Below are positions 27,429-45,674 of a stretch of DNA of 64,000 nucleotides, piece after piece. How positions within the stretch are numbered: the first letter of the stretch is position 1; each line of letters opens with the position of its first letter. The stretch comes from Gemmatimonadota bacterium (GTDB lineage: Bacteria > Gemmatimonadota > Gemmatimonadetes > Gemmatimonadales > GWC2-71-9), in the NCBI GenBank assembly GCA_039589275.1, contig JBDHHP010000001.1, positions 7,551-71,550 of the forward strand. Reading direction: 5' to 3'. The notes below the pieces were generated by a model that worked only from the letters and a program-made list of their open reading frames with translations, did not search any database and was not told the DNA's origin. The translations under genes were made by a program, and so were the position numbers.

Positions 27429-27499
27429 CGCTACGGTCCTCCGGTTGAAGACTCTTGTTGTCAACAAAACCTGTGCCTCCACCACCCTTATACCCCACA

Positions 27500-27574
27500 T
27501 GGGCGAAGAGGGATTCGAACCCCCGACTTCCTGCTTGTAAGGCAGGCGCTCTGAACCAACTGAGCTATTCGCCC
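27500..27574 (-). tRNA. tRNA-Val (anticodon TAC)
   Basis: The reverse complement GGGCGAATAGCTCAGTTGGTTCAGAGCGCCTGCCTTACAAGCAGGAAGTCGGGGGTTCGAATCCCTCTTCGCCCA has anticodon stem CCTGC/GCAGG and loop CTTACAA. Confidence 0.93.
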
Positions 27575-27585
27575 GTTCGGTTCGG

Positions 27586-27774
27586 TCACAGTGCAAGGCC
27601 CAATGGGAACAGCACGCAATACCCAAGCACTAGCAGGACCGGAGCCACCGTGGTATTGCCGCCCGCCAGCAGGAGGTAGCCGACACCTACTGCCGCCACG
27701 GCACCGCCCAGCAGGACAAAGTTCCTGCCGCGGAAGTGGAGACGAGCAGGCGAACCACCCTTAGACATAGACAC
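27586..27774 (-). CDS. small two-TM membrane protein (DUF3098-like by eye)
   Basis: 62 aa with a basic N-terminus, then two hydrophobic helices (FVLLGGAVAAVGVGYLLLAG; VAPVLLVLGYCVLFPLGLAL). Confidence 0.5.
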   Translation of the reverse strand: MSMSKGGSPARLHFRGRNFVLLGGAVAAVGVGYLLLAGGNTTVAPVLLVLGYCVLFPLGLAL

Positions 27775-27801
27775 AGAGCCTAACCGGAAGTTCCATATGC
27801 G

Positions 27802-28590
27802 TCAAGCACTTGCGTGCCATTCGGGTGGAACTTCCCAGCCCTCATCCAGCGCCGCTCGTCGCTCTCTGTCGCGCCGCTTACGCCACCACCACAGGCTCAC
27901 CAACACCAGGCCCAAGAGCGACCAGAATACACTCAGCGACCCAAACAGCAAGACCCACCCGTAGCGCCGGCGCAACTCCTGCCGCCACAGTTCTTCAAAC
28001 TGCCCAAACGTCATCTGGTACGTGACTCTGAGGGTCCGATCGAAATCGACCGACTGGGACAGATTGGATATCAGAGGCTCCAGGCCCCGGTCGCCTCCGA
28101 GGCGCTCCAGCAACAAGACTGCAGTGGTCGCAAGAGCATAGGCGGTCTCTGCCCGCGCGGCTCCGGCGCGCAGATCGCCATTGAGCTGACGCAGCGTCGG
28201 CGTCGAGCCTCTCAGCAAAGCCCAGTTCACTCGCAGAGCCTGCAGCCGGCCCCACTCCCCAGCGGCCCGCGCCGCATAGCCTTCGTCGAACCACAGCGGG
28301 ACGCGGCGTACCCTGCTGTGCAGTACGAGATGCGCTAGTTCGTGCTGCAGCACGCGACGGACATTGTTTTCCAACTTGAGCACGATGGTGTTGGATCCTG
28401 GAAAAGCTGCTCCACCACCCCAATCGGGCAACCTGCCTCTGGTGATTGAATCAAACCTTTCATCAGTGGCAGCGAGTATGACTCTAATCGGCCGATCCGT
28501 GGCGCTAGGAATACCCGGCCAGGAAGCTATTTCATCGGCCATTTCCGCCAGTACGGTGGCCGCCGATTCTTCGCCCGGCCAGAATACCAC
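27802..28590 (-). CDS. gluzincin-type metallopeptidase-like protein (Peptidase_MA_2-like) with a C-terminal TM anchor
   Basis: HELAH (HExxH) followed by WFDEGYA (third-ligand Glu motif), a C-terminal helix and an RKRRDRERR tail. GTG start at 28590; see the finding on a possible upstream extension. Confidence 0.65.
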   Translation of the reverse strand: MVFWPGEESAATVLAEMADEIASWPGIPSATDRPIRVILAATDERFDSITRGRLPDWGGGAAFPGSNTIVLKLENNVRRVLQHELAHLVLHSRVRRVPLWFDEGYAARAAGEWGRLQALRVNWALLRGSTPTLRQLNGDLRAGAARAETAYALATTAVLLLERLGGDRGLEPLISNLSQSVDFDRTLRVTYQMTFGQFEELWRQELRRRYGWVLLFGSLSVFWSLLGLVLVSLWWWRKRRDRERRAALDEGWEVPPEWHASA

Positions 28591-28649
28591 CGTGACCCTA
28601 CCGACAGTGATAGCTGCGGGATCCTGCGTCGCGAGAGCGAGAGCCAGTG

Positions 28650-29516
28650 CTACTGCGAGCGTGGTGGCTCCCGTCCCTGTGCGACGAGTTCTAGCGTTTC
28701 CTTACAGCGCTTGCCCCACGGGTTGAACTTGTTGGCCTTGTAGCCGTCAGACCAAGTAGCGCTCGCTCCTTTGCGGTCTCCGGCAAACCATCGCGCCCTT
28801 CCGAGCTCGTAATACGCCTCTATGAGATTGGGGCCAAGCCGCAGCGTTTTCTCGAAGAAAGTCTGGGCATCTTCGAACATCTCGCGCTCTTGGTAAACTA
28901 GACCTAGGTAGAAATGCGCGTAGAGCGTGGCCTTCTTGTCATTGTCAAGCCGGATTGCCTTGGAGAGATGTTCAATAGCCTCGCCAAAAATCCCTTTCTT
29001 GAGGCAGATGTATCCAACGTTGATGCGCGCTAGTGAATTTGCCGGTTCCTTCATTAGAACTTGCTGGAAGGTCGCGAGGGCATCGTCGTAGTCTTCGTTC
29101 AGCATTTGCGCCCAGCCGAGCAGCGATTCCGCTTGCACGTCGCCGGGGGACAGCGAAAGCGCCTTCTTCAATGCTTGAAATGCACCAGGGTAGTCACCCA
29201 GGGAGATGAGACTCCAACCCTTCTCGATGAAGGTCGAGGCACCTATGTGGTCCACCCGAACCGCCGGTACCGCTCCAGTGAACTCGGGAGCACGCTCGCC
29301 GCTTTCGTTCTGGGACAGTTCCTTGTACTTCTCGACCAGGATCCGGATGTCCTCCTTCAGCATCGTGAGGTCGGTGATCCCCTGATCTACCGTCTTGAAC
29401 AGCGTGATGATGTCACGCTTGACAGCTTCACGCTGGTCCGCCCCCGACACGGACGCGATCCGCCCGGTTATCTCGTCATACGATGCCCGTAAGGGCGAGA
29501 CGATAGGCTCACTCAT
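28650..29516 (-). CDS. coiled-coil plus TPR-repeat protein (last gene of the che/mgl operon)
   Basis: 288 aa; the C-terminal two thirds are canonical TPRs (e.g. AFQALKKALSLSPGDVQAESLLGWAQM). 8-nt overlap with cheW. Confidence 0.8.
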   Translation of the reverse strand: MSEPIVSPLRASYDEITGRIASVSGADQREAVKRDIITLFKTVDQGITDLTMLKEDIRILVEKYKELSQNESGERAPEFTGAVPAVRVDHIGASTFIEKGWSLISLGDYPGAFQALKKALSLSPGDVQAESLLGWAQMLNEDYDDALATFQQVLMKEPANSLARINVGYICLKKGIFGEAIEHLSKAIRLDNDKKATLYAHFYLGLVYQEREMFEDAQTFFEKTLRLGPNLIEAYYELGRARWFAGDRKGASATWSDGYKANKFNPWGKRCKETLELVAQGREPPRSQ

Positions 29517-29985
29517 TTCGTATCTCCGCCATCAAACTTCGCAGCGCGACTCGTTGATCCGTAGCTAGCAGCTTCGCCACCGCCAACAGAATCACTGTGC
29601 GTTCTCCCAACGTGAGAATACCACTGATGCAATCTGCGGCAAGGCCCTTAACGATCGCAGGTGGCGCGGCCACGCTTTCCGCCGACGCCTTGAGAACCTC
29701 CAGCACGGCGTCCACCACCAGCCCGATTTTGCCATCGTCCCACTGCACTATCGCAATCCGTGTCCCTTCGTCGATTGACCCAGGCAGCTCCAACCGCTCT
29801 CGGAGATCCACCACCGGAATTACTTCATCTCCGTGCTTCAGCATGCCGACGAGGTAGTCCGGAGCCTTTGGCAGTGGGTTCGGCTCTTCGTACCTGAGTA
29901 TCCGCTCTACCTCGAACACATTGAAGGCGAACTCATGGCCGCCGAGACGAAACGTGACGAGCTGGACCTCATCGGCGATGTTCAT
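29509..29985 (-). CDS. cheW: chemotaxis coupling protein CheW
   Basis: 158 aa; QLVTFRLGGHEFAFNVFEVERIL..VGMLKHGDEVIPVVDLRERL is typical of a CheW domain. Confidence 0.9.
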   Translation of the reverse strand: MNIADEVQLVTFRLGGHEFAFNVFEVERILRYEEPNPLPKAPDYLVGMLKHGDEVIPVVDLRERLELPGSIDEGTRIAIVQWDDGKIGLVVDAVLEVLKASAESVAAPPAIVKGLAADCISGILTLGERTVILLAVAKLLATDQRVALRSLMAEIRNE

Positions 29986-30409
29986 TACCTAGCTCCGCTC
30001 CTCCTGCAACCAGTCTCTCAGCCAACACCTCCAAATCGACAATCGGAATCAGCTCGCCTTCGTGCTGTACCACACCGGAAGCCCATGGAAGTTGCCAGGT
30101 TTCCGGAACCGGGCGCGGGTCCTCCCGCACCAACTCTTCAGCATCGTCGACCACGAAAGCAACCATAGCACCGGAACACCGCGCGAGTACAACCATGCCG
30201 TGACTGGTATCTGACGCAGCATCGTCCTCAATGAGAGCAGCTAACTGTACCAACGGCACAACACGCTGCTTGATCGGCGTCACTCCCATTACAGCAGGAT
30301 GTGAACCGGGAGCGTCCAGTCTCTCGAATTCCTCTACGACCTCGACTACTTGGTCGACTCTCAGGCCTAGCCACCTGTCGCCCAATCGCACCCTGAGGTA
30401 CTCTGTCAA
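29969..30409 (-). CDS. divergent CheW-like coupling protein
   Basis: YLRVRLGDRWLGLRVDQVVEV..GVVQHEGELIPIVDLEVL. The track ORF (to 30691) overlaps cheB, so I place the start at TTG 30409, 2 nt after the cheB stop. Confidence 0.75.
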   Translation of the reverse strand: MTEYLRVRLGDRWLGLRVDQVVEVVEEFERLDAPGSHPAVMGVTPIKQRVVPLVQLAALIEDDAASDTSHGMVVLARCSGAMVAFVVDDAEELVREDPRPVPETWQLPWASGVVQHEGELIPIVDLEVLAERLVAGGAELGNEHRR

Positions 30410-30411
30410 GT

Positions 30412-31485
30412 TCAGCTCACTCCGTGGAGTGCTCGTTGTATCGCACTCGCTACCTGCTGCAGCGGTACGATTTCGGTCGCCCCGCCGAGCTCGGCTGCTG
30501 CCTTGGGCATGCCAAACACCACTGACGTTCCCCTGTCCTGGGCTATCCCTGTTCCCCCAGCATCTCGAATCGCACGCAATCCCGCGGCTCCATCCCGACC
30601 CATTCCCGTGAGAACTACCCCGACGGACCTCGAAGCGAACCTCGTCGCAACGGACCTGAATAGCGGGTCTGCCGCCGGTCTCACACCCCACAATGGCGCT
30701 TCCCGGTTCAGGTGGATTCGCAGGGCACCCTCGGTGGCAACAAGCATGTGATAGTCTCCCGGTGCCACCAGAGCCGTGTCCGATTCGATTCTCATGCCGT
30801 CTTCGGCCTCGTCTACTGTCAAAGCGCTCAGCTCATCCAGTCGTTGCGCGAGGCTGCGTGTGAACCCGCCAGGCATGTGCTGCACGATAAGCGCAGCATA
30901 GCCGACGCCCACCGGAAGCTGCGGCACGATTTCCACTAGAGCACGGGGACCACCGGTACTCGCGGCGATCACGAGCACTCGCGTCACGTCCGCGGTCACG
31001 GCTGACCGTCGTAGCGCCGTTCTCGGCGGCTCCAAAGCTGGACGAATCGGTCGGGTCCGGTCCAACACTACTGAGTCCGCCGCATCCAGCGCACGAAGGA
31101 CCGCCACTACCATTAGCGCCAGCCCCTCGGGTTCTCCGCCGGTCGGCTTGGCCACAACTTCCACTGCGCCCAGCTCTAGAGCACGGACTGCGGCGTCGGC
31201 TCCGGGACGCCCATAGGCACTCACGACCACGATGGGCCTAGCGCACTCCCGCATTATTCTCGCGATGGCCCGGAGCCCGTCCAGCCTAGGCATCTCGATG
31301 TCCATGGTCACTAGGTCCGGATTCAATCCCCGGATCTTCTCGATGGCGTCCAGGCCGTCGCACGCCGACCCTGCGAGCCGAAACCGCCCGGACTGTGACA
31401 CAGCGTCACCCAGCACACGCCGCATGAACGCACTGTCATCAACCACCAGAACGGTGGGTTGTCGCTCAGAGTTCGATCGGCTCAC
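30412..31485 (-). CDS. cheB: protein-glutamate methylesterase/glutaminase CheB (REC plus methylesterase)
   Basis: VLVVDDSAFMR..VTMDIEMP receiver, and a catalytic Ser/His/Asp context (ASTGGP, VQHMPGGFT, GMGRDGA). Confidence 0.95.
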   Translation of the reverse strand: MSRSNSERQPTVLVVDDSAFMRRVLGDAVSQSGRFRLAGSACDGLDAIEKIRGLNPDLVTMDIEMPRLDGLRAIARIMRECARPIVVVSAYGRPGADAAVRALELGAVEVVAKPTGGEPEGLALMVVAVLRALDAADSVVLDRTRPIRPALEPPRTALRRSAVTADVTRVLVIAASTGGPRALVEIVPQLPVGVGYAALIVQHMPGGFTRSLAQRLDELSALTVDEAEDGMRIESDTALVAPGDYHMLVATEGALRIHLNREAPLWGVRPAADPLFRSVATRFASRSVGVVLTGMGRDGAAGLRAIRDAGGTGIAQDRGTSVVFGMPKAAAELGGATEIVPLQQVASAIQRALHGVS

Positions 31486-31960
31486 TACCCACCGTGCGTA
31501 CAGTCACAACACCACGCTCCCCGTCCAGCCAAACCGAGCGGCTCTTCTCACCTCCGACGGCCTCTCCTACTATGGGTACCGATACGCCGCGCAAACTCGA
31601 CCTGCAAGCGACAACGTTCCGCTCTCCAATGTGAACCGCTCCGGCCGCGAGCAGGTCCGCGAACATACTGGCACCGCCAACCAAGCGACATGTGATCCGC
31701 TCCTGCGCTGCGCCCTTCTCGCACATTGCACCCACCAGCCACGGGACGGCAGTGTCGGCGGACCTAATGGGATTGCTCGTGTCCCTGGATAGAGACCGCG
31801 ATGGCAACAAAACGTGCGCCAAGCCGCACACTCTCGCCTCACGATCGTCCAGGATTACCGCCACACAGCTTCCGAGGCCGAGAGCTGTGAGGGTCTCACC
31901 GCTGTCGGTCACGGCCATGGCACCGAGCCTGACCAGGATCTCCTCGCCACCAGCGTTCAC
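31466..31960 (-). CDS. cheD: chemoreceptor glutamine deamidase CheD
   Basis: 164 aa; ALGLGSCVAVIL (catalytic Cys), GLAHVLLP. Confidence 0.9.
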   Translation of the reverse strand: MNAGGEEILVRLGAMAVTDSGETLTALGLGSCVAVILDDREARVCGLAHVLLPSRSLSRDTSNPIRSADTAVPWLVGAMCEKGAAQERITCRLVGGASMFADLLAAGAVHIGERNVVACRSSLRGVSVPIVGEAVGGEKSRSVWLDGERGVVTVRTVGSEPIEL

Positions 31961-32778
31961 GGTCGACGGTATATGCGTTCTCTCGGGTTCTCGAGGATGA
32001 GGCGCGTCCTCAGTACGCCTAGCAGAGTCTCGCTTTTTCCCAATACCAAGTATCCGTCGCGACGCAGGGCGGCGATGAAACCGGAGATAAGCCGATCTTG
32101 AGTCACTCGGTCAAAGTATATCAATACGTTGCGACAGATGATCAGGTCGTACGGCGGTGCGGGCGGCGGATCCTTAATCACGTCGTGTTTGCCAAACACA
32201 ACCAGATCGCGCACGCCCTGGTCGATGGTGCGGGGGCTCGCTCGACTGAAGTAGCGCTCAACTAGGTCCGCGGGCATCTCTTCGAACGCCGACTCGTTGT
32301 ACACACCTCGCTGAGCTCGATCCAGGCAAGCTCCGTCGAGATCAGTCGCATCGATTCGCACGGCCTCAGGGCGGGTTCCGGATTGCCGTGCCAACTCCGA
32401 GATTAGTATCGCCAACGTGTAAGGCTCTTCGCCGGACGCGCAGCCAGCCGACCAGCATCTCAACTCGCGGGGCCCCTCGCCCCACAGCGCTGACAAAGCT
32501 GTGTTCTTAAGAGCATCCCACGTTTCCCGATTGCGAAAGAACTTAGTGACGTTGATGGTCAGTGCATCGAGCAACTTATCGTATTCGGCTCTGTCCCGTT
32601 CCAACACGTCCGCGTAGGCCTCGTACGTGTTCACTTCGCACGCACGCATACGCACGGCGAGGCGACGTCTCAGGCAACTCTCTTTGTAAGCATCGAATCC
32701 AAAGCGACGTTCCCGGGCAATTTTCTCGACCAACTGGACGAGGTTGGGATCGCGCTCGGCCGGATTACGTGAGGGCAC
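31957..32778 (-). CDS. cheR: chemotaxis protein methyltransferase CheR
   Basis: TNVTKFFRN and the SAM-binding WSAGCASGEEPYTLA, RNVLIYF. Confidence 0.95.
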   Translation of the reverse strand: MPSRNPAERDPNLVQLVEKIARERRFGFDAYKESCLRRRLAVRMRACEVNTYEAYADVLERDRAEYDKLLDALTINVTKFFRNRETWDALKNTALSALWGEGPRELRCWSAGCASGEEPYTLAILISELARQSGTRPEAVRIDATDLDGACLDRAQRGVYNESAFEEMPADLVERYFSRASPRTIDQGVRDLVVFGKHDVIKDPPPAPPYDLIICRNVLIYFDRVTQDRLISGFIAALRRDGYLVLGKSETLLGVLRTRLILENPRERIYRRP

Positions 32779-34384
32779 TCACGGTATCCAGATTCGTTCG
32801 AGCCAGCTCGTGCTTCGGGTTGAGTTCCAGCGCTTTGCTCCAATACTCGGCAGCCAGTTCTCGGTCGAGTCGCTTATACGCGATGTTCCCCAGCTTGAAA
32901 TAGACGTCGTCGCCTAGCTCCGGCTGCAACTTGCACGCTCGATGATACGAGTCCCAGGCCTCATCATACCGACCTGCTCGATAGTGGATATCTCCGAGGT
33001 TCTTTGACAGTTGCGGTACGGACGGCTCGTCTGCGATGGCCACTTTGAGAACCTCCTCTGCCTCCTCTACACGACCCAGCAGCTCCAGCAAGGCGCCGAG
33101 GTTATTCCGCAGCACTGCGTGCTCTGGGTAGCGCTCCAAGCCTTCTCTCAACACCGCCTCCGCCTGGTCGTAATCCTCCTGGCATCCCGCTGTCAGTGAA
33201 CGCGCCCAGTACCAGATCTCACTCAGTAGCTGCTCGCCCGCTACCTCCCGCGCGCGGTCGAGCCGTCCAGCAGCGACCTCGAAGTCCCCCCGTCGTAGAG
33301 CCACGACGCCCCATCCAGTGAGGATGTGTCGGTCCCTACGCGCCCTGGTTGCTGCCTCGGCGTAGTGTGCCTCGGCATCCTCGAGCAGACCCGCTTTCTC
33401 GCAACTCAGTGCCAGGTTGTACAGCACTGACGGCCGCGATCCGCCGCGCTCGACGGCTACCTTGAAAGCGTCCATTGCCTGCTGCCATTGGGCCTGCCGA
33501 AAATGGATCAACCCGAGGTAAAACGAGGCACCGCCATCCGACGGTCGCAGCTCGACGACGCGCCTGAACTCCCGCATCGACTCGTCAAGCATGCCGGTGC
33601 GGTAGAACGCTATCCCGAGATTACGGTGCTCGTCGACTCGGACATCCGGAACCTCCGGCTCCCGCTCCGTCTCCTTGCGACCCGAGGCGTGCACGAACCC
33701 CGCAGTAATGAGGCCGTAGAGCGCCTTGCCCACGTCGAACTCAACCATCCCGGTCTCCTCGACGATCATGGCAACCTCACGGGTTCCGTCCAGAAAAGGT
33801 ACAAGACGTTGCTGCTCTTCCGACAGCGTCACACTCGATGATTCCAGATGGTCCTCGTCCAACTCGAAGACGATGTCGAGTGAGGGGATCTTCTTTTCGA
33901 TCTGGCTCCACTCGTCAACTCGACGGGCGCCTTCGAGCAGCAGAGCCTCCGGATCAATGGAAACCAGAAAATCCTGACGGTGGGGCCGTACATCACTCTC
34001 AAACGTGAAGCTCCCCCGTCTCCAGGTGAAGAGGAAGTACACGGCCTCCTCGATCTGGACACGCATGTAGTGCTCCAGTTCGGACTGCGATATAGCACCT
34101 GTGTCCACCAGGATCTCGCCGAACTTCTTGTCCCGGTCGTGGTCCTGCAAACGGATGGCCTCGTCGAGCTGGCCTTGGTTTATTCTGCCACTCTTGAACA
34201 GGATGTCGCCCAGGCGGTCCCGGCGGTTCACCACTGTTGCGTAGATGATCCTCCCGGCATCGAAGAAGATGTAGCCCAGGCTGGACCGGTCGGTAATCGA
34301 AAGGCAGCCTGTCTTACGTCCCAGCGACAGCAGTTGGAGGACGTCTGGCAGTGAAGCTTCCTTGAGACTACCCTTTATCGCCAC
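32765..34384 (-). CDS. PATAN (DUF4388, PatA-N-terminal-like) domain plus TPR-repeat protein
   Basis: N-terminus MAIKGSLKEASLPDVLQLLSLGRKTGCLSITD..GYIFFDAGRIIYA with a helical insert; the C-terminal ~280 aa are TPRs. Paralogue of 38534-39691. Confidence 0.8.
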   Translation of the reverse strand: MAIKGSLKEASLPDVLQLLSLGRKTGCLSITDRSSLGYIFFDAGRIIYATVVNRRDRLGDILFKSGRINQGQLDEAIRLQDHDRDKKFGEILVDTGAISQSELEHYMRVQIEEAVYFLFTWRRGSFTFESDVRPHRQDFLVSIDPEALLLEGARRVDEWSQIEKKIPSLDIVFELDEDHLESSSVTLSEEQQRLVPFLDGTREVAMIVEETGMVEFDVGKALYGLITAGFVHASGRKETEREPEVPDVRVDEHRNLGIAFYRTGMLDESMREFRRVVELRPSDGGASFYLGLIHFRQAQWQQAMDAFKVAVERGGSRPSVLYNLALSCEKAGLLEDAEAHYAEAATRARRDRHILTGWGVVALRRGDFEVAAGRLDRAREVAGEQLLSEIWYWARSLTAGCQEDYDQAEAVLREGLERYPEHAVLRNNLGALLELLGRVEEAEEVLKVAIADEPSVPQLSKNLGDIHYRAGRYDEAWDSYHRACKLQPELGDDVYFKLGNIAYKRLDRELAAEYWSKALELNPKHELARTNLDTVSALT

Positions 34385-36339
34385 TAGGTCAGCTCCTCGA
34401 CAAGCCTCTCGGCAGGATCTGGCCAGTTCCAGATCATCTTCTCTCGGCTCTGGAGAGCGCCCGCAGGACTCACCACAACACCACTGGTTCTGAGCCCCGC
34501 CGAACTCCGTCGAGCTCTGGGTAGCGCTCCCTCGATCAGTTCTCGCGCAAGGCCCGCGCTCGGCGGAGCAGCTCGAGCGTCCGCCGCATCGAGTACGCGT
34601 TGCACCAAGCCCGTCACAGCTCGAACCGAGTCGGCGGGACGATCAGCCAAGTAGTCCACGAGCTCGGGATCAGCCTCCGCCGCAACGCCACCCATCATCC
34701 GCTGCACCATAGACGATCTGAATTCCCGATCCGGTGAAAGCAACACGAAGCTATCCGCCCCTCGGATGCGAGACATCAGCTGTTCCGATAGGCCTGCTAG
34801 TTCGTCAGGCGGAGCATTGGAGGTGAGCACTAGCGGCTTGCCCTCCCCCAGTAGCGTGTCGACCAGGCCAGCGAGTTCTTGTTGCGCGGACTCGGTCCCC
34901 GCCAACAGCTGCACGTCATCGATCAACAGGGCCTTGCTGCTTTGGAACAGCGATCGCAGTTCGGAGACCCGGTCGTCTCGCTCTGCCTCCGCTGTCATGT
35001 CGCGGAATTCCCGTGCAGACACGCAAGTCACACCGGAGCCAAGCGCAGAGGTCAGCGCGTTCCCAGTTGCGTGAAGCAGATGTGTCTTGCCGACACCCGT
35101 CCGCCCGATCACGATGATCACGTTGCGGGAACCCTGATCCTCCAGCCCTCGCATCGCCTCGTCAGTCCGCCTGTTCACTGCGCTGCCGATATAGTTATTG
35201 AATGTCCAAGCGGGAGATGGACCAGGCAACGACTCTGTCTGCGGAGCCAGCGTGTCAGCAAGTACCTGCGCTTCGGAAACGCGGTCCGGGTCCCTAAACA
35301 GTGGATCGTCGGCACGGACGGGATCGACTTCACTGACCGATTTCCTCAAGGTCACGAGCCGCTCGGCGTCCCGCTCGAATTCCTCCAGGGCTGCCTCCAC
35401 CGGAATCGGTGTACCTTGATCCAACAAACCCTCCAACCTGGCAGTATCAATTCCTTTTCTTCCCCAGCGCCGTATGGCTTCGGTGAGTTCGGCTTCCCAT
35501 GCAGTTACTTGCTGCTGGACCGTGACGCTCACCTCGGAAAGGAAATCAGCAAACTCATCCTCGCTAGCTTGATGCCGGGCCGTGATTAACGACGGCCTCG
35601 GGCTGGCATCAATCGCTAGCGCCTCGCCTTCCAACAAAGACCTGGCCCCCTCCGGTGTGAGAGGACTTTCGCTCACCGCATCCAGAGCTATCAGCCGGTT
35701 GAGTAGCGACACCAGCTCTCGAGTATTCGTGATGTCGAATTCCGCGACCACCGAAAGGACTGACTCATCCAGGCCGGTCGCTCGCGCGCTAGCCCTGCCC
35801 TGCAGCACACCGAGACGCGTTTCGTAGTCGGGAGCGCCCATCTCGACCACAAGCCCGGCGTCGATGAGTGACGCCAGGGACGAATCGAAGTTGTCGATGT
35901 CTCGGGGAGCACAACGACCTGCGAGCAGGAGGTGCCGGCCGCTCGACTGAGCCTGTTGTATGAGCTTGGCGAGTTCAGTCTGGACGTCGCGCCGCCGGTC
36001 CAACAGATGCGCATCGTCGATCAACAATACGTCCGCCTCCGCCAGCCTGTGTCTGAAAGCGTCGGCCTGCCCAGCGGAAGCGGCAGCGCTGAAGGCTTCT
36101 GCCATCCGATCAGGAGTCACGTACTCGATCGAGCGCGGCGGATCTGACTGCGACGCTTTCAGACCAACTGCCATGAGCAGATGGGTCTTGCCAACGCCCT
36201 CGCCTCCATAGAGATACAAGGGGTTATACATGCCACTAGGGCGGGCAGCAACCGCCCCCGCTGCAGTAGCCGCCAGCTCGTTGCCACTCCCCACAACGAA
36301 CGTGTCGAAACTGAACTTGGGGTTCAGTTCTCCTGTCAC
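34384..36339 (-). CDS. tandem DnaA-domain-III-like AAA+ ATPase (two modules, no DnaA domains I/II/IV)
   Basis: Module 1: [73 protein letters not shown]. Module 2: [64 protein letters not shown]. 4-nt overlap with the mglA stop and 1-nt overlap with the next start. Confidence 0.8.
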
Positions 36340-36935
36340 GTCGGAGTCTCCTCGCTCAGTTTCTTCAGCACCAGTTCCGATACCCCCTTCAACGTCTCGA
36401 ACACACCTGCTCCGTTCAGGGCGTCAGCCGGAAAACTCGGAGCGTCACGAAAATTCAGAGCATCGTCCATCTCGTCGGGTGTCAGGATGAGATCGGACGG
36501 CAGGTCCTGTTTGTTGTATTGCAGCACCACCGGCACCCCACGCACATCGACCGCCTGCTCGAGGAGGTTCTCCTGCAGGTTTTGCAGGCTCTCGATGTTC
36601 TCGTCCAATTGACGCGCCTGGCTGTCAGCTACGAAGACGACGCCATCGGCACCCTGGAGAACCAGCTTGCGAGTAGCGTTGTAGTAGACCTGTCCCGGCA
36701 CAGTGTATAGCTGGAAGCGCGTGGTGAAGCCAGAGATTTGCCCGAGTTCCAAAGGTAGGAAATCGAAGAACAGGGTGCGGTCGGTCCGGGTCGCAAGAGA
36801 CACCATCCTTCCGCGGCGCGTTTCCGGCACGCGACCGTAGATGTACTGTAGGTTCGTCGTCTTGCCAGACCTCCCGGGCCCGTAATAGACGATCTTGCAG
36901 GTGATTTCCCGGGTGGTGAAGTTCACTAACGGCAT
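36336..36935 (-). CDS. mglA: MglA-family Ras-like small GTPase
   Basis: Colinear with Myxococcus MglA as I recall it: [62 protein letters not shown]. Confidence 0.93.
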
Positions 36936-36938
36936 GAT

Positions 36939-37409
36939 TTACCGCCCAAAAAGTGACGCCAAGCTCTCGTTGAGCTCGCGCTCGAAGTTCGCGCTAATAA
37001 CGGCCTTCTGGGGAATCCCTTGCGGACACGCCTCGTTGAGCTCCCGAGCAAGATCCTCGAAGAACAGCTGCACTAGACCTACAGATGACTCCGATCCGTA
37101 GACGACGAGTGCAAGCAGACGTCCACGCGGTGTGTCGGTCTCCGAAAGAAACACCCCGTGTCTTGCTCCTTGGTGATTCAGCGCCCTGAAGCCGTTTTCC
37201 CCGATCGCACTTGCGATCTCTCTAGTAGAGGAGACGATCGCGGCCCCCAAGGCAGCGGCAGCCATGATATCCACCGCACGGGTGAAGCCGTGCTGGGCCA
37301 AGACCTGGCCCGATGGAGTCATGATGAGAGTCAGCCGCGCGTCGGCCTCGGTAACGAAGCGCTCCAGGGGCTCCATCATCCAGGGTTCCACCGCCCGCGT
37401 CTGCTTCAC
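36939..37409 (-). CDS. mglB: MglB (roadblock/LC7 GTPase-activating protein)
   Basis: 156 aa; IGENGFRALNHQGARHGVFL..SSVGLVQLFFEDLARELNE and an extended C-terminal helix resemble Myxococcus MglB. It lies immediately upstream of mglA, as in the mglBA operon. Confidence 0.85.
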   Translation of the reverse strand: MKQTRAVEPWMMEPLERFVTEADARLTLIMTPSGQVLAQHGFTRAVDIMAAAALGAAIVSSTREIASAIGENGFRALNHQGARHGVFLSETDTPRGRLLALVVYGSESSVGLVQLFFEDLARELNEACPQGIPQKAVISANFERELNESLASLFGR

Positions 37410-37753
37410 GGCACCAGCTCCGCTGCGTGCAGCATCTCGAGTCTCACCAGCCCGACATTCACGTCCTTGTCGGCTACGACTACGATCACCACGTCTGCTG
37501 CGGGCATTACAAGAAGCGTCCCGTTGGCTGCCTGCAGTTGGACGAAGTGCGGCACGCCGACCCCCGTGGCATAACAGGCTCGGGACATTCGCCCGGCGAA
37601 GCTGGCGGCCAACGCCGCCACCGCGTCACCACGAATGTTCTCCATCACCGCGTCCGCCACGATCAACCCGTCATCGCCGGTGACCACCAAAGCCCCGCGG
37701 ACTCCGCTGATTCGTGTGACCCGATCGAGGGCCTGCTTGATTGCCTGAGTCAC
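37406..37753 (-). CDS. roadblock/LC7 domain protein (second MglB paralogue, MglC-like size)
   Basis: 115 aa; ISGVRGALVVTGDDGLIVADAV..LLVMPAADVVIVVVADKDVNVGLVRLEM is the roadblock pattern. ATGA overlaps on both sides. Confidence 0.8.
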   Translation of the reverse strand: MTQAIKQALDRVTRISGVRGALVVTGDDGLIVADAVMENIRGDAVAALAASFAGRMSRACYATGVGVPHFVQLQAANGTLLVMPAADVVIVVVADKDVNVGLVRLEMLHAAELVP

Positions 37754-38577
37754 AACTCTTGCTCTGCGAGCCAGTCCTTGGCGGTATCGGCGGCGCGCTG
37801 CGCCATGACCGCCAGCCTGCCGGCGGGCACGCTGCGATCTCTTGCCACCAACATCAGACCGTCCTTAGACGGACGACTCACATGGACGTTCCCGCTCGCA
37901 CCCTCCGCGGCCACCCACTCCCAAGAGCCCATTCCCAGTATGCGCGTGGTGCGCGCCGCCTCGTGAACGGCGCCCGTCACGAAGGCCGCCACGTCGTCCG
38001 AGACGTCTGCACCGGTCGCATCTCGAATACCTCCCGCTAGCACCAACCCTCTGGCGTCGAACATGAGTAGGCCGTGGTCGGCCCCCGCTAGACCCGCAAA
38101 CACCCTTGACTGGCGGACCTCTGCCTCGACTTCCGAGGTCTCGACTGCTTCCCTGACCACGTGTAACGCCTCGACCACGCTGGAATCAGTGGGGTCCGCC
38201 GCCAACGCCGTCTCGAGGTGCTCCAACGCTCCATCCAGGTCACCCCAACGGAAGCTCAGGAAGCCTAGGCCCTTATGAGCTCCCAGGTGTCGTGCGTCTT
38301 TCTCGATAGCCGCATACCATTCGTCACGAGCTTGCTGCAGGTGGCCCATGTCGACGAGCACGCGTGCGTACAGGTCATTTGCGTCGGCGAGGTCGGTATG
38401 ACGTTCCAAGCCCGCGACGGCTACTTTTGCGGCCAGGTACAACTGCCCCCTGGATCGCAGTGACTCCCCCAAATCGAGAAAGACCAAGCTGTCCGGATCA
38501 CGGGCGAGTTCGGCACTCAACGTGCGGACTTCGTCAACCAACGGGGCCTCCGAGCATACCGTCCAGCTTGCCCACAA
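37750..38577 (-). CDS. TPR plus C-terminal roadblock/LC7-like domain protein
   Basis: N-terminal TPRs (LVFLDLGESLRSRGQLYLAAKVAVAGLERH..) and a C-terminal HGLLMFDARGLVLAGG..GNVHVSRPSKDGLMLVARDRSVPAGRLA. TTG start at 38577 (alternative TTG at 38541). Confidence 0.7.
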   Translation of the reverse strand: MWASWTVCSEAPLVDEVRTLSAELARDPDSLVFLDLGESLRSRGQLYLAAKVAVAGLERHTDLADANDLYARVLVDMGHLQQARDEWYAAIEKDARHLGAHKGLGFLSFRWGDLDGALEHLETALAADPTDSSVVEALHVVREAVETSEVEAEVRQSRVFAGLAGADHGLLMFDARGLVLAGGIRDATGADVSDDVAAFVTGAVHEAARTTRILGMGSWEWVAAEGASGNVHVSRPSKDGLMLVARDRSVPAGRLAVMAQRAADTAKDWLAEQEL

Positions 38578-39691
38578 TCGTGAGCGCCTGATTCACTTGC
38601 TCCACCTCTTCTGGATCCTGTTCGGCGTGTTCACCATGCTTGATCCATCGCTGCCACCACTCGACCGCCTCATGGTAGCGCCCTTGGAGTGCGAGCGCGT
38701 TACCCAACAGCCGGTGCGCCGGAACTAGCATGGGATCGATGCGCAGTGCTCGACGCAGGTGCTGCTCGGCAGAATTCACGCGCTTCTCCATCAGGTCCGC
38801 ACGCCCAAGCATGAGGTGCACGTCCGGGTCATGCGGCGCCGCCGCGCGGGCCGTTTCAGCGCACACCCTCGCCGACCCAGGATCTCCACCCTCTAGGGCC
38901 TCCTGCGCCTGACCGAGGGCCATCTCGACCTGCTCCCGGCCCTCGTCAACAACTGGCGCCGCGACCGGCTGCTCCTCGAGCTGCAAGATGCCGGCACTTT
39001 CCAGACCAAACACTGCCTTGGCAACGTCGAACTCAGATCGACCGAGATCAGCCGAGATGCCCCGCACGTCGCGCTCGTGGTCGACGGCTGCCATTATCTC
39101 CCATTCGAGCGGGAGCAGGTCGAGGTAATCCTCCTGGGTCACCTGGTTCTGTGAGGCGAACCGCGGGATCACACCGAGGTGCGGAATCTTGCTCTCAATG
39201 CGCGACCACTCATCGATACGGCGCGCTCCTTCCATCAGCAGCGATTCCGTAGGTATGCGCACTCGGGCCTCGTTGGGCAGTTCGGTGGACTCCCCTTCAA
39301 CGAAGGAGAAATACCCTTCGCGCCAACCTACGAGCTCGAAAACGACCTCCTCCACCTGGCCCCTGACTTGTCGTTCGAGATCCCGCTGCGAAAGCGCGCC
39401 GATGTCCACCAGGATGGCGCCGAGCTTGCGCTCGTCACCTGCAAGCTGCATGTCGCGAGCGCGATTCAGGTCGGCCTCGCTAGTTCTGCCGGATTGCACC
39501 AACATCTGGCCCAGTAGGTGAGGGTTGCTTTCGATCTCCGCGTTTACGACCGCTCCTCGTTCAAAGTACACGTTTCCACTATTCTGCCGCAGCTTCGAGG
39601 TTACCGTGAGCTTGCCAGTCTTTCGACTGAGGTCGAGCAACTGGAATACGTCGTGAATTCCGAGTTCTTTGAGGGGACCCTCAATCGCCAT
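38534..39691 (-). CDS. PATAN (DUF4388) domain plus TPR-repeat protein
   Basis: MAIEGPLKELGIHDVFQLLDLSRKTGKLTVTS..GNVYFERGAVVNA with C-terminal TPRs. ATG at 39691 lies 2 nt after the upstream stop; the longer track ORF is rejected. Confidence 0.8.
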   Translation of the reverse strand: MAIEGPLKELGIHDVFQLLDLSRKTGKLTVTSKLRQNSGNVYFERGAVVNAEIESNPHLLGQMLVQSGRTSEADLNRARDMQLAGDERKLGAILVDIGALSQRDLERQVRGQVEEVVFELVGWREGYFSFVEGESTELPNEARVRIPTESLLMEGARRIDEWSRIESKIPHLGVIPRFASQNQVTQEDYLDLLPLEWEIMAAVDHERDVRGISADLGRSEFDVAKAVFGLESAGILQLEEQPVAAPVVDEGREQVEMALGQAQEALEGGDPGSARVCAETARAAAPHDPDVHLMLGRADLMEKRVNSAEQHLRRALRIDPMLVPAHRLLGNALALQGRYHEAVEWWQRWIKHGEHAEQDPEEVEQVNQALTIVGKLDGMLGGPVG

Positions 39692-39693
39692 GG

Positions 39694-42363
39694 CTACGCA
39701 ACCTTGGACCGAAAGATGTGCTTGAGATCGAGGGCCGAGCGGGCGTGCTTCCGCGCCTCGCGAGCAAGAGAACCGTCGGGCTCGAGGCCCATTACTAGCT
39801 CCCACTCCCTCAAGGCCTCAGTGTAACGGCGCAGTCTGGCGGCCGCGATGCCTCGGTAGAAATGCGCGCCCACGTGCCCGTCGTCAAAGGTCAGCACACG
39901 TTCAAACGCCTCAATCGCTTGCTCAGCCTTTCCACCGTCCAACAGCGACCGCCCCAAGGCAAGCAGGGCTTCCGTGTCGGACGGATCGGTCTTCAGTGCC
40001 TCAACCAGTAGATTGACCGCCATTCGCGGCAGCTTGCTTAGTCGATAGACCCGAGCCAGCGCGAGCGACGCCTCCGTCAGAGTTGGCAGTATCTCTAACG
40101 CCGCCCGATAAGACCTTTCCGCTGCTTTGAGATCGTTCCGCGCCTCGTACAGGCGTCCCAAGTCGACTTGGACCTGGGCGAAGCGCGGCTCGAGATCCAG
40201 AGCACCCTCGTAAGCCTGCTGGGCAGCATCGACATCCCCCATATCCGCGGCTATGTCACCCACAAGCTTCAGGATGTCCGCGCGCTGCGGAGCCCTGCTG
40301 CGCGCTCGATCCAAGTACTCCAGGGCGCTGGCCGGATCACCGGCCGCGAGCCGGGCTTCCGCCAATGATACGAGCACGTCGGCGTTGTCCGGGTTTTCCT
40401 CTGCCAATGAGGTCGCGTCATCAACCGCTTCGGCGCCCCGGCCCAGCGCAAGAAGCTGTCGGACCTCACCCAGCCGTGCGTCGAGGCGTTGCGGCGAATG
40501 AGAGCGCGCCGCCCGGTATCGCTCGAGCGCTTCGCCGTGGAGCCCTCGACGGTCATAGATATCACCTGACAATACGTTCATTTCGACCGGATCAGCGCCC
40601 CGTCCCACAGCCCTATCGGACTCAGCCGCCGCTAGGTCTAGCAGGCCTTTGTCGAGATAATCCCGCGCCAGCGCGAGTGGATCGGTGGGGCCAGAGGGTG
40701 GCTCACGCAACGGCGCTTTGTCTAACTCAGCAAACATGTCGTCGATGAGCGACTGATCGAACTCAATTGGATGTACCGCATCGGCTGCGACATCGGCTGA
40801 AATCTCCGGCACTACGGCGATGCCTGGATCCTCAGATTGCAGATCGATGGAGAGCCGGAACTTCTGCGGCACGTAGTAGGGATCAAGGGACTGCGCCCGT
40901 GTGACCGTTCGTAGAGCTCCGTCAAAGTCGCCCAGTCTCGATAGCGCGAAGCTGAGGTTGTAGTGGTTTTCGGCGGAGTCCGGGTCGGTCTCTACCGCTC
41001 TCGCAAAGGCGTTGCGGGCGTCCTTGGGACGTCCCAATTCGTTGAGTACGAGACCGATGCCGTTCCAAGCACCAGCGACGGGATTCCGCTCCAGTACCTT
41101 ACGGTAGGTCTCAAGCGCGAGCTGGAACCGGCGCAGTTTGAACAGAAGCAGGCCGAGATTCAGTTGGGGTGTCGTCGATGCCGGGTCCCGGCTGACAGCT
41201 CTCTTGAACTCAGATACCGCTTGCTCGTGTTGACCGCCCTGCGCCAAAACGACCGCCAGATTGCTGTGCGGCAGCGCATATCCGTCGTCGTTCTCGATCG
41301 CCTTCAAGTACGACTCTTTGGCATCTTCAAACCGGCCGAGCTGATGCAGCACCACGCCCCGTTCATTCCAGAACTTGGACGATTCGGGCACGTCGCGAAC
41401 CAACCCTTCATACAAGTCCAATGCTGCTGCGTGGTCTCGCTGCAGCAGGAAGACTTCCGCCATCCCCTGCTCTACCATGCGACGGTCTTCGCCCCGGTCT
41501 AACGCGAGCCGGTACTCCCGCAATGCCTCTTTGTAGTAGCCCTGTCGTCGAAATGCCAAGCCCAGGCTATGGTAAGCGAGCGCCTCCCGCCCAGCGTCTG
41601 AGCCTTCCGAGTTGGGCGCCTCCCACATGGCGCTCCTTCGATCGCCCGTCACCCGTTCGAGCGAGAGGTTCGTCTGCGCACGGCCATAGGTCGGGTTCAG
41701 CTGAATTGCGCGTTTGGTGGCAGCCCTCGCGTCTTCGTGGCGTCCGACATCACCGAACACGAAGGCGAGCAGGTAGTGCGCTTCAGCGTTGTCGGGATTC
41801 AGCTGAACTGCGCGTTCCAATGCATCCAGCGCTTCGGAGTTGAGACCCTGATTGTACAGTACTTCCCCAAGATAGAAGTGCACGACACTACTGTCCGGCT
41901 CCAACCCACAGGCTCTTTCGAGCCATTCGGTTGCCGTCTCGAGGTGACCGAGCTTCTTCTCCGCCAGCGCAATCTGTACGATCGCCGCGACGTTGTCCGG
42001 ATCCCTGGTGAGAAACGCCTGGAACTCGCTAGCTGCGGCGTCGTATTGTGCCAGCGCACTGTAGGCGCGGCCGAGCTCCCAACGCTTCTCGCTGCTCTCA
42101 GGATCAGATCGGAGCGCTGCGCGCAGCTCTTGCACTCTTCGATCGTAGTGCCCCGATCGTCGATAGGCGAATTCGAGATTTCGCTCCGCCACGGTCATCC
42201 GAGGGTCTAGCGCCAGCGCGTGGGAGAACTGCTCAACTGCTTCGGCAGTGAGGCCTTTTTGGCAGTACAAAACACCCAGGTTGTTGTGAGCGCCCGCATC
42301 AGAGGGGTCGATGCGTCGAGCCAGGCTCCGCAGCGTATCGCGATCCTGCTCCGTCAGGGCCAC
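39694..42363 (-). CDS. large TPR-repeat protein (889 aa, two TPR arrays separated by a ~60-aa acidic linker)
   Basis: More than 20 recognisable TPR units (e.g. AEAHYLLAFVFGDVGRHEDARAATKRAIQLNP). No other domain is recognisable. Confidence 0.85.
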   Translation of the reverse strand: MALTEQDRDTLRSLARRIDPSDAGAHNNLGVLYCQKGLTAEAVEQFSHALALDPRMTVAERNLEFAYRRSGHYDRRVQELRAALRSDPESSEKRWELGRAYSALAQYDAAASEFQAFLTRDPDNVAAIVQIALAEKKLGHLETATEWLERACGLEPDSSVVHFYLGEVLYNQGLNSEALDALERAVQLNPDNAEAHYLLAFVFGDVGRHEDARAATKRAIQLNPTYGRAQTNLSLERVTGDRRSAMWEAPNSEGSDAGREALAYHSLGLAFRRQGYYKEALREYRLALDRGEDRRMVEQGMAEVFLLQRDHAAALDLYEGLVRDVPESSKFWNERGVVLHQLGRFEDAKESYLKAIENDDGYALPHSNLAVVLAQGGQHEQAVSEFKRAVSRDPASTTPQLNLGLLLFKLRRFQLALETYRKVLERNPVAGAWNGIGLVLNELGRPKDARNAFARAVETDPDSAENHYNLSFALSRLGDFDGALRTVTRAQSLDPYYVPQKFRLSIDLQSEDPGIAVVPEISADVAADAVHPIEFDQSLIDDMFAELDKAPLREPPSGPTDPLALARDYLDKGLLDLAAAESDRAVGRGADPVEMNVLSGDIYDRRGLHGEALERYRAARSHSPQRLDARLGEVRQLLALGRGAEAVDDATSLAEENPDNADVLVSLAEARLAAGDPASALEYLDRARSRAPQRADILKLVGDIAADMGDVDAAQQAYEGALDLEPRFAQVQVDLGRLYEARNDLKAAERSYRAALEILPTLTEASLALARVYRLSKLPRMAVNLLVEALKTDPSDTEALLALGRSLLDGGKAEQAIEAFERVLTFDDGHVGAHFYRGIAAARLRRYTEALREWELVMGLEPDGSLAREARKHARSALDLKHIFRSKVA

Positions 42364-42367
42364 GAGG

Positions 42368-42988
42368 TCACCCCACCTGGATGACTCGGAGAATCGCTTT
42401 GAGCGACGCCAGATCAGGCAACAGCAGGAAGTGACCCTTCAGCTTCCGATCTGCTTCCTCGAAGTGGAAGTCTGTCTCGACGCAGAAGACGTAGTCGCGA
42501 TCGCGCCCAAAACTCAGGTGCGCAGTGGTCACAACGGCCGTGGCAACGTCGATAGCGAGACTGGGCACCGACGGCAGGAGCATCATCCCCATGAAATCCG
42601 ACAGAGCGTTCATGTATGCCCCACCCAGAATGTTGCCAGCCTCTTTGAGGCTCGAGCGCTCCAATTCACCGAACTCCACAGTCGCACCCGGCTCGCGTTT
42701 GAGCAGCAGGTCGCACAAGAGGCGTGCGTTGTCATCGGGAAACATCAAGAGAGTGCGACCCGTGAGGTCGCCCAGCATGTGCATCAAAACGGCCGCGACC
42801 ACCTCGTCGGAGACCAGCAGCAACTCGGATAGACCATCAATGTCTGTGACCGTTATCTCCGGAACGCTGATCATGATGCGCCTGTCGGTCAGCTGTGACA
42901 GCGCGGTAGCCGCGTGTCCAGCACCGATGTTCGCCACTTCTTTGAGAGCATCCATCTGCAGCGCTTCGAGACCGTTCATATCTTCCAT
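42368..42988 (-). CDS. cheC: CheC-family CheY-P phosphatase
   Basis: 206 aa; MDALKEVANIGAGHAATALSQL and a second SLKEAGNILGGAYMNALS repeat. Confidence 0.88.
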   Translation of the reverse strand: MEDMNGLEALQMDALKEVANIGAGHAATALSQLTDRRIMISVPEITVTDIDGLSELLLVSDEVVAAVLMHMLGDLTGRTLLMFPDDNARLLCDLLLKREPGATVEFGELERSSLKEAGNILGGAYMNALSDFMGMMLLPSVPSLAIDVATAVVTTAHLSFGRDRDYVFCVETDFHFEEADRKLKGHFLLLPDLASLKAILRVIQVG

Positions 42989-43001
42989 AGAACTCTCCTA
43001 C

Positions 43002-44864: not shown

Positions 44865-44866
44865 CC

Positions 44867-45229
44867 CTACCCAAGCACCCGCTGCACTGCCTCCAAGACA
44901 CGGGAGGGCTGAAAGGGTTTCACAACGAAGTCCTTTGCCCCTGCCTGAATGGCCTCGACCACCAGGGCTTGCTGGCCCATTGCACTGCACATCAGAATGC
45001 GCGCGTCCGGATCCTGACCAATGATCTCGCGCACAGCGTCTATACCACCCATATCCGGCATGACTATGTCCATAGTGACGAGGTCTGGCCTGAGCTGTCT
45101 GAACTTCTCTACAGCCTGGACCCCCGTCTCAGCCTCGCCGACCACCTCGTATCCGGCCTGACTGAGGATATCGCTTATCATAGTCCGCATGAAGATGGCG
45201 TCATCGCAGACAAGCACTGTATGGCTCAC
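44867..45229 (-). CDS. cheY: chemotaxis response regulator CheY
   Basis: 120 aa; VLVCDDAIFMR, VTMDIVMPDMGG, FVVKPF. Confidence 0.95.
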   Translation of the reverse strand: MSHTVLVCDDAIFMRTMISDILSQAGYEVVGEAETGVQAVEKFRQLRPDLVTMDIVMPDMGGIDAVREIIGQDPDARILMCSAMGQQALVVEAIQAGAKDFVVKPFQPSRVLEAVQRVLG

Positions 45230-45238
45230 GCACCCTCC

Positions 45239-45673: not shown

Positions 45674-45674
45674 C

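Follow-up and report, generated by a model that had tools for sequence, protein, structure and literature searches.

The AAA+ domain of DnaA is seen as reserved for replication initiation and, via Hda, for the control of initiation. What, then, is the role of a gene that encodes this domain twice, lacks the DNA-binding domain and directly follows the gene of the small GTPase MglA in a chemosensory operon? The question is raised by a stretch of 64,000 nucleotides (nt) from a Gemmatimonadota bacterium (GenBank assembly GCA_039589275.1, contig JBDHHP010000001.1, positions 7,551 to 71,550 of the forward strand), hereafter the window. The gene is an open reading frame (ORF) on the minus strand with a GTG start and a product of 651 amino acids (aa), here named DnaA2x. 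Our analysis places DnaA2x among the DnaA-domain-III paralogues that act without DNA-box binding; its architecture and its biological context are both new. It defines a large family in Gemmatimonadota, of which no description was found in the literature searched, with the order module 1, linker, module 2 and tail, and its constant neighbour is a PATAN protein, a large TPR protein, or both. As to its function, which we infer from sequence and context, we give about even chances to a non-initiator DnaA paralogue that serves a PATAN/TPR polarity-motility pathway as a switch or scaffold gated by ATP.

Two DnaA domain III modules in one protein

The family Bac_DnaA (PF00308) is matched twice in DnaA2x, at residues 5-166 and about 377-540, with E=1.9e-66 and 223.7 bits against a Pfam cutoff of 23. 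Domain IV is missing (no PF08299 match at E<=0.01), domain I is missing as well (no match to DnaA_N, PF11638, in Pfam), and the protein begins directly at a domain-III strand. An initial annotation, made from the sequence alone, had read the gene as a tandem of DnaA domain III without a DNA-binding domain and had listed the motifs of each module; the Pfam matches agree with the former, and alignments and residue counts show the motif list to be correct for both modules. Module 1 aligns without gaps to residues 111-334 of Bacillus subtilis DnaA (8bv3; phmmer, E=6e-39), and module 2 aligns end to end with domain III of a Bacillaceae DnaA at 27% identity (E=4e-31). In module 1 the ATP-binding residues are intact, namely K51, T52, D108 and D109 (Walker B LLIDD) and the sensor-2 arginine R207, together with a sensor-1 Asp replaced by Arg142 and an arginine finger replaced by Leu158. 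Module 2 has the full set of motifs: GVGKT with K418, LLIDD with D474/D475, sensor-1 N508, arginine finger R524 and sensor-2 R573. The AlphaFold2 (AF2) model has a mean predicted local distance difference test score (pLDDT) of 81.5 and superposes in Foldseek on 8bv3_A with a target template-modelling score (TM) of 0.92 and a root-mean-square deviation (rmsd) of 1.9 Å, the second match being 2z4r (target TM 0.87). Helices at the initiator-specific insertion site are present in the models of both modules, at residues 76-88/92-101 and 442-454/458-466.

Both modules belong to the DnaA clade proper, not to Hda or IstB. In a comparison with the models of these clades, the DnaA models score far highest for both modules: TIGR00362 gives 199.8 bits for module 1 and 139.5 bits for module 2, the Hda models 86.6 and 75.8 bits, and the IstB, DnaC and ZapE models score much below DnaA. 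For the whole protein, the Hda model TIGR03420 reaches a summed 158.2 bits, below its cutoff of 194.8, the IstB model NF038214 94.4 bits against a cutoff of 200, and DnaC 23.8 against 357. A regular-expression search finds no beta-clamp-binding motif of the QL[SP]LPL type in DnaA2x. Averaged over a sample of 24 members of the family and 27 canonical DnaAs spanning many phyla, the identity to canonical domain III is 39.6% for module 1 and 32.9% for module 2, and that of the two modules to each other is 32.4%. A neighbour-joining tree recovers the splits 'all module 1' and 'all module 2', which would fit one ancient duplication; with a bootstrap of 0.23-0.30, such an event is therefore not claimed. 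Among canonical DnaAs, those nearest to module 1 belong to other phyla or are unnamed.

These scores bear directly on the reading found in many automatic annotations, that the gene is a degenerate or alternative chromosomal replication initiator. In the JGI and NCBI pipelines, relatives go under 'chromosomal replication initiator protein DnaA' or 'DnaA/Hda family protein', and TIGR00362 gives the whole protein 335.8 bits, near the cutoff of 343.9 and still below it. The score comes so near because two domain-III matches are summed, and the missing domains I and IV speak strongly against an initiator role. Besides, dnaN is beside DnaA2x in none of about 110 loci, while the same scans showed the canonical dnaA-dnaN-gyrB loci of other bacteria; the arginine finger is dispensable in many members; and in a complete chromosome of 5.51 Mb (L024) the gene is located at 4.29 Mb. 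We thus regard an initiator as extremely improbable, and the name 'chromosomal replication initiator protein DnaA', which hundreds of these genes carry publicly, as wrong.

A family with three lineages

A word-indexed search finds more than 120 clusters at 90% identity, 636-662 aa long and all spanning the whole query; the source names, where given, are Gemmatimonadota 'ATP-binding protein', 'DnaA/Hda family protein' and 'chromosomal replication initiator protein DnaA'. An exhaustive phmmer search of 1.84 billion representatives with module 1 lists about 80 clusters at 50% identity that have two DnaA-III stretches starting at residue 1. Custom hidden Markov models of module 1, linker, module 2 and tail match about 60 of the representatives, with the four parts in the order expected, and in this way also show homology of the linker. 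The family, of which the window protein is typical, is divided here into three groups.

Group A is Gemmatimonadales-type and includes the window. Over 120 close relatives, neither module varies in its P-loop, Walker B motif or sensor-2 arginine, with K51 and T52 in 120 of 120. The arginine fingers are relaxed, being Arg in 64 of 120 for module 1 and in 90 of 120 for module 2, with neither in 20 of 120, and sensor-1 is variable. Group B is mostly Longimicrobiales. In all 74 genomes counted, module 1 is fully canonical, K51 included, while module 2 has lost its Walker A (K418), Walker B and lid and kept the box VII arginines R520 and R524, again in 74 of 74. Group C is a low-GC lineage, labelled Candidatus Cloacimonetes by one depositor and Gemmatimonadetes by others; both of its modules are fully canonical and 50-55% identical to clostridial DnaA domain III, with K51 in 11 of 11 and K418 invariant as in group A. 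Common to the three groups is the ATP site of module 1, whose Walker A Lys, Walker B DD and sensor-2 Arg are invariant or nearly so, and, except in part of group A, also the arginine finger of module 2.

Some further proteins were met in the searches. P0148 (673 aa, on a 2.6-kb ENA contig) has two DnaA-III modules followed by a genuine Bac_DnaA_C (PF08299, E=4e-24), and might be an initiator with a duplicated engine. A 752-aa ORF from a Thermoplasmata archaeon metagenome-assembled genome (L052, 5902-8157) matches the DnaA2x query with 34% identity in the best segment and has no domain IV signature. Two loci that seemed to hold longer matches (L045 and L047) are in fact ordinary dnaA-dnaN-gyrB loci.

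Genomic context across lineages

In the window, DnaA2x belongs to a one-strand operon of about 20 genes, which runs cheW-cheY-cheA-cheC, TPR (889 aa), PATAN-TPR, TPR-Roadblock, Roadblock, mglB, mglA and DnaA2x, and continues with a second PATAN-TPR, cheR, cheD, cheB, two cheW, TPR, Peptidase_MA_2 and TPR. All 24 group A loci, taken from GTDB species representatives, have the same operon order as far as each contig extends. The order mglB-mglA-DnaA2x is found in 22 of the 22 close loci that reach far enough upstream, two others being cut by contig ends, and MglA is 75-89% identical over 23 syntenic loci. In group A, each locus reaching beyond DnaA2x has a PATAN-TPR gene as the next one downstream, and this gene is the most constant neighbour in the family. 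The 80 loci of group B occupy the same chromosomal place, after rluD; 76 of them have PATAN-TPR after DnaA2x, and 74 of the 76 also the peptidase. In the remaining four no PATAN-TPR was found, and in three of these the contig ends at or soon after DnaA2x. Neither che genes nor mglA or mglB are adjacent to DnaA2x in the 80 loci. For group C the context comes from exact look-ups of loci, three of which have a PATAN and/or TPR neighbour. One arrangement reads cheW-cheY-cheA-AAA_22-cheW-cheC, a TPR protein of about 820 aa, a PATAN protein of about 245 aa and DnaA2x, and is without mglAB. Among the 96 complete pairs of DnaA2x and PATAN-TPR genes measured, the stop-to-start distance is mostly 2-12 nt in the pairs inspected.

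The site after rluD holds the full che-mgl cluster in Gemmatimonadales-type genomes, and only the DnaA-like, PATAN-TPR and Peptidase_MA_2 genes in Longimicrobiales-type genomes (L091-L170); the difference in cluster size at this fixed site is either a large insertion or a large deletion. In the che clusters of group C (L251, 3743-5493; L254, 4339-6011), an AAA_22 P-loop protein of 272 aa and a long CheW of 284-310 aa stand between cheA and cheC, and both are missing from the window operon. A contig named 'uncultured Acidimicrobiia bacterium' (L023, CAXMUQ010000073.1) has a complete Gemmatimonadota-type operon in the same order with 40-78% identity; it is probably mis-binned, a transfer being less likely.

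The fixed position also decides on a mobile-element helper of the IstB kind or an anti-phage defence ATPase. Secondary IstB_IS21 and nSTAND matches, and a weak PADLOC match confined to the P-loop (mad8, 42.5 bits, no significant stretch), could be taken as hints of such a role. Yet the gene stays next to rluD across the phylum, no transposase is nearby, and DnaA models score far above IstB, leaving this explanation with practically no chance; synteny rules out a defence or transposon role, for which the PADLOC matches are only weak and of the P-loop.

The junction between mglA and DnaA2x is read as ...ACGTGACAGGAG, where the GTG start and the TGA stop of mglA combine to GTGA, an overlap of 4 nt in coordinates; GAGGAG, a Shine-Dalgarno sequence, lies 8 nt 5' of the GTG. 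The junction between DnaA2x and PATAN-TPR is read as ...CTGACCTAGTGGCG, the G of the TAG stop being the first base of the PATAN-TPR GTG, and this start also has GAGGAG 8 nt upstream. The ORF of the initial annotation and both of its overlaps, 4 nt with mglA and 1 nt with PATAN-TPR, are thus borne out by direct reading, and the GTG at 36339 is backed by conservation of the homologues from residue 1 on in the family alignment. The public gene call for this protein (P0001, 615 aa, JGI 3300041077) starts at Met37, 36 residues too late, with a gap of 104 nt after mglA and the conserved first strand cut off (window 36232-36339, minus strand). The GAGGAG of each next gene sits in the last codons (Glu-Glu) of mglA (36340-36357) and of DnaA2x (34387-34395), both on the minus strand.

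Is DnaA2x then a partner of MglA specifically, an effector or regulator of its GTPase cycle? The 4-nt overlap speaks for it, and so does the mglB-mglA-DnaA2x order wherever the close loci are long enough to show both genes. Translational coupling to mglA, claimed initially, is kept in 23 of 24 close loci, i.e. in all with sequence upstream of the gene. On the other side, the linkage to mglA holds in group A and is absent next to DnaA2x in groups B and C, where neither mglA nor mglB is adjacent. The link is therefore real but lineage-specific, and a function specific to MglA is neither ancestral nor defining for the family, maybe a lineage-specific addition. We consider this explanation unlikely.

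Linker and tail

Between and behind the modules, DnaA2x has two parts of its own, for which no Pfam family is matched (for the tail at E<=10). The linker is predicted to form two long helices, at residues 262-294 and 314-338, and carries the motif DEFxDFL...W...RW..(E/K)G(Y/F)xTxxLE, of which W-x-x-KGF-x-T-x-x-L is found again in the group C proteins. The initial annotation had described an acidic helical linker. Predicted helical and acidic it is, with 30 D+E against 15 K+R in residues 229-376 and an isoelectric point (pI) of 4.4, but its acidity is not special, because the whole protein has a pI of 4.7. The tail had been given as lacking a domain IV signature, which stands; its 47 residues are, however, not featureless, being basic with a near-invariant terminal motif. 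Residues 605-640 are predicted disordered by AF2 and a short helix follows at 642-650. The signature [SP]xEKxxWxWPxxxxRxxEE is kept in nearly all tandem family members, and its second Trp, W639, is invariant in groups A, B and C. Conservation across all lineages in a segment predicted to be disordered is typical of a docking peptide.

A possible link to type IV pili

DnaA-type modules without domain IV are also found in pilus gene clusters. Two proteins, P0150 (1990 aa) and P0162 (1876 aa), have an N-terminal MshEN domain and two DnaA-III modules each. In PilB/MshE ATPases, MshEN is the domain at the N terminus that binds cyclic di-GMP. The contigs of the two proteins, from two assemblies, encode pilD, three or four proteins with MshEN and/or DnaA-III, a TonB_C protein and pilB, and one of them goes on with pilT, pilC, pilS and pilR. 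These loci are L257 1-25923 (GCA_030620115.1, JAUXFG010000024.1) and L260 1-17239 (JGI 3300068090), and their fusions measure 398-1990 aa with one or two modules. The PATAN domain for its part is reported to bind the N-terminal region of PilB as well as PilC, and PATAN-GspE_N fusions have been noted (bioRxiv 10.1101/2021.06.11.447907). Wuichet and Sogaard-Andersen found some MglA genes near PATAN genes and mentioned no ATPase partner (PMC4316618). We favour a pilus or polarity output as a guess because these facts place DnaA-type modules, PATAN, MshEN/PilB and MglA in one network. In the literature searched, no mention of MshEN-DnaA-III fusions was found, and full-text searches returned no description of a DnaA-type ATPase in MglA, PATAN, MshEN or pilus pathways; the combination of a DnaA-type ATPase with MglA appears to be new, as had been supposed at first.

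Proposed function

The switch or scaffold favoured here could work as follows. The ATP site of module 1 does not vary in any lineage, and this module would therefore sense the nucleotide. Module 2 would contribute its arginine finger where chains or modules meet head to tail as in DnaA, completing an ATP site within or between chains, a role suggested because the finger is invariant in groups B and C, in group B even after the loss of P-loop and lid. The nucleotide state may then control oligomerisation or the exposure of linker and tail, and the PATAN and/or TPR protein encoded next door may be the docking site of the C-terminal peptide. In the window's subgroup the relaxed arginine-finger and sensor-1 residues suggest slow hydrolysis, switch-like and not motor-like. 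The output of the pathway would be polar or motility-related, plausibly through type IV pili, and in the window's lineage it would be wired to a Che-type chemosensory system and the MglA/MglB polarity GTPase.

A number of observations weigh against this reading. DnaA2x is the fastest-evolving gene of the operon, with 34-55% identity among group A loci. In the second arrangement of group C (L252) a TPR protein of 867 aa is directly upstream and a PATAN domain is not recognisable. The Glu-Glu codons at the end of the gene double as the Shine-Dalgarno sequence of the next one, and part of the C-terminal '...EEL' conservation may therefore be at the nucleotide level, for translational coupling. 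There are no pilus genes in the window. Finally, AF2 does not fix the orientation of the modules: each is modelled with confidence, yet the predicted TM score (pTM) is 0.42-0.44, and in a deeper run with an alignment of 119 sequences the pTM is still 0.42, so that an intramolecular composite site is not predicted. Of the internally asymmetric pseudo-dimer proposed in the initial annotation, the asymmetry of the catalytic residues is confirmed, with a pattern that varies by lineage, but the AF2 predictions show no rigid pseudo-dimer within the chain.

The main rival is an Hda-like regulator of the true DnaA, which would enter or cap filaments of DnaA-ATP, or supply DnaA-ATP with an arginine finger, and so couple initiation to the polarity or chemosensory state. 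Hda itself is the precedent for a domain-III-only regulator, and the likeness to canonical domain III is very high (the mean of 39.6% for module 1, and 50-55% for the group C modules). R116, which corresponds to K222 of B. subtilis in the B motif contacting single-stranded DNA (ssDNA), is kept in 110 of 120 relatives, groups B and C keep their box VII arginines without exception, and the window gene is located between divIVA and the dcw cluster. This adjacency to dcw is, however, not kept in groups B or C, and the conserved neighbours are signalling proteins and never dnaN, dnaA or other replication genes. The protein has no clamp-binding motif and no domain I, the Hda models stay below cutoff, the hydrophobic ssDNA-contact position (I190 in B. 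subtilis) is His, Asn or Gln, and related DnaA-III modules are found in pilus clusters. A regulator of this kind seems to us improbable. Some of the same residues bear on a nucleic-acid tether, in which ATP-dependent DnaA-like filaments on ssDNA or RNA would anchor a chemosensory or polarity complex to the nucleoid. The initiator-type fold with insertion-site helices in both modules (target TM 0.92 to 8bv3), the conserved R116, the basic tail and an operon without a receptor gene would suit it. With no duplex-DNA-binding domain IV, an ssDNA-contact position that is not conserved as hydrophobic and a protein that is strongly acidic overall (pI 4.7), a tether is very unlikely.

Returning to the switch or scaffold, a wider view may be put forward tentatively, as a possibility we hold less likely than its opposite. 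DnaA-type AAA+ modules may make up a class of polarity and type IV pilus regulators that has so far gone unrecognised, and whose head-to-tail assemblies, ATP-dependent and DnaA-like, would act as a polar scaffold or timer linking Che, MglA and PATAN/TPR proteins to the pilus motor. The class would have been exapted from the oligomerisation engine of the replication initiator and then have diversified into tandem DnaA2x in Gemmatimonadota and a related lineage and into MshEN-DnaA fusions in pilus clusters. If DnaA2x has the role proposed, signalling for cell polarity or motility has recruited the ATP-dependent oligomerisation of the initiator, and the MglA/PATAN pathways, whose outputs are poorly understood outside Myxococcus and cyanobacteria, would gain an unexpected ATPase component. 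The natural series of variants, with both modules active, with module 2 only a finger donor, or with the fingers lost, could be used to dissect DnaA-type interfaces.

The operon of the window

The features of DnaA2x and its operon are collected in Table 1. The operon is flanked upstream by yggS, divIVA, pnp, ileS, lspA and rluD and downstream by mraW and ftsI, so that the che-mgl cluster abuts the dcw cell-division cluster. Within 25680-45730 (minus strand) it encodes CheA, CheY, CheC, CheD, CheR, CheB and three CheW, and no methyl-accepting receptor gene. The longest cheA ORF (662 aa) overlaps the 120-aa cheY, and its start is more likely Met43 (44864). The long ORF of the upstream PATAN-TPR is matched by homologues from about residue 38 on, and the start is likely the methionine of MAIEG. 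Peptidase_MA_2 has an HExxH motif and a C-terminal hydrophobic (membrane) helix; it comes after PATAN-TPR in groups A and B and may be part of the same functional unit as DnaA2x and PATAN-TPR.

Table 1. Positions in the window of DnaA2x, its parts and the surrounding operon
Feature	Position (nt)	Strand	Basis
DnaA2x, whole ORF, tandem DnaA-domain-III protein	34384..36339	-	PF00308 twice, no PF08299
Module 1, aa 1-228, DnaA AAA+ domain IIIa+IIIb	35656..36339	-	alignment, TIGR00362, pLDDT about 90
Module 1 Walker A GGEGVGKT, aa 45-52	36184..36207	-	residue counts
Flexible segment from module 1 to linker, aa 240-261	35557..35622	-	pLDDT <50 in both AF2 runs, not conserved
Conserved helical linker, aa 262-364	35248..35556	-	AF2 pLDDT 75-90, conservation
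Module 2, aa 377-604, second DnaA AAA+ domain, all motifs	34528..35211	-	alignment, TIGR00362, residue counts
Module 2 Walker A GRTGVGKT, aa 412-419	35083..35106	-	residue counts
Basic disordered C-terminal tail, aa 605-651 (family signature at 34387-34449)	34387..34527	-	pLDDT 31-54, pI 10.6
mglA, 199 aa, stop overlaps DnaA2x start	36336..36935	-	small-GTPase matches, synteny, junction
mglB-like Roadblock protein, 156 aa	36939..37409	-	PF03259; weak NF052242 MglB match; synteny
Two more Roadblock genes, 115 aa and 275 aa (the latter with N-terminal TPR)	37406..38577	-	PF03259, TPR, synteny
Upstream PATAN(DUF4388)-TPR	38534..39691	-	PF14332 E=1.4e-31
Downstream PATAN(DUF4388)-TPR, 539 aa	32765..34384	-	PF14332 E=7e-37 and TPRs
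Upstream operon half: cheW (45239-45730), cheY (44867-45229), cheA (43002-44864), cheC (42368-42988), 889-aa TPR (39694-42363)	39694..45730	-	Pfam, synteny
Downstream operon half: cheR, cheD, cheB, two cheW, TPR (288 aa), Peptidase_MA_2 (27802-28590), TPR (648 aa)	25680..32778	-	Pfam, synteny

Comparison with known systems

With DnaA itself, both modules share domain IIIa and the lid IIIb, with Walker A, Walker B, sensor-2 and box VII in register. Unlike DnaA, the protein is without domains I/II and IV and has two modules per chain with a linker and tail of its own; the window's module 1 has neither the sensor-1 Asp nor the arginine finger, and the context is signalling and not dnaN/oriC. Hda and HdaA are likewise derived from DnaA domain III and have no DNA-binding domain. 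Hda acts via protein-protein contacts, and its arginine finger is functionally important. It consists, however, of just one module, about 230-250 aa long, and has a clamp-binding motif at its N terminus, whereas DnaA2x has two modules, no such motif and a context that is not replication-related.

The tandem (type II) AAA+ proteins p97/Cdc48, NSF and ClpB also have two AAA+ modules per polypeptide, one of them often catalytically weakened. They differ in belonging to the classic clade, with closed hexameric rings and pore loops, and in Foldseek their likeness to the whole chain of DnaA2x is low (TM 0.22-0.29, rmsd about 25-32 Å). Modules of the DnaA clade carry an initiator-specific insertion that favours open spirals.

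As for the pathway, the MglA/MglB/RomR-Frz system of Myxococcus xanthus and the cyanobacterial PATAN regulators resemble the window operon in that a chemosensory system, a Ras-like GTPase with a Roadblock GTPase-activating protein, TPR and PATAN proteins are encoded together. The characterised MglA/Frz and PATAN systems control pilus-based motility and polarity (PMC4316618; bioRxiv 10.1101/2021.06.11.447907). They differ from the DnaA2x operon in that no AAA+ or DnaA-like component was found described for them in the literature searched. The MshEN-DnaA-III fusions P0150 and P0162 and their neighbours share with DnaA2x the DnaA-type modules without domain IV, sometimes two of them, in a motility or signalling context. 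In contrast to DnaA2x, they have an N-terminal MshEN domain and very long coiled-coil-like spacers, show neither the linker nor the tail signature, and have their genes between pilD and pilB and not beside PATAN genes.

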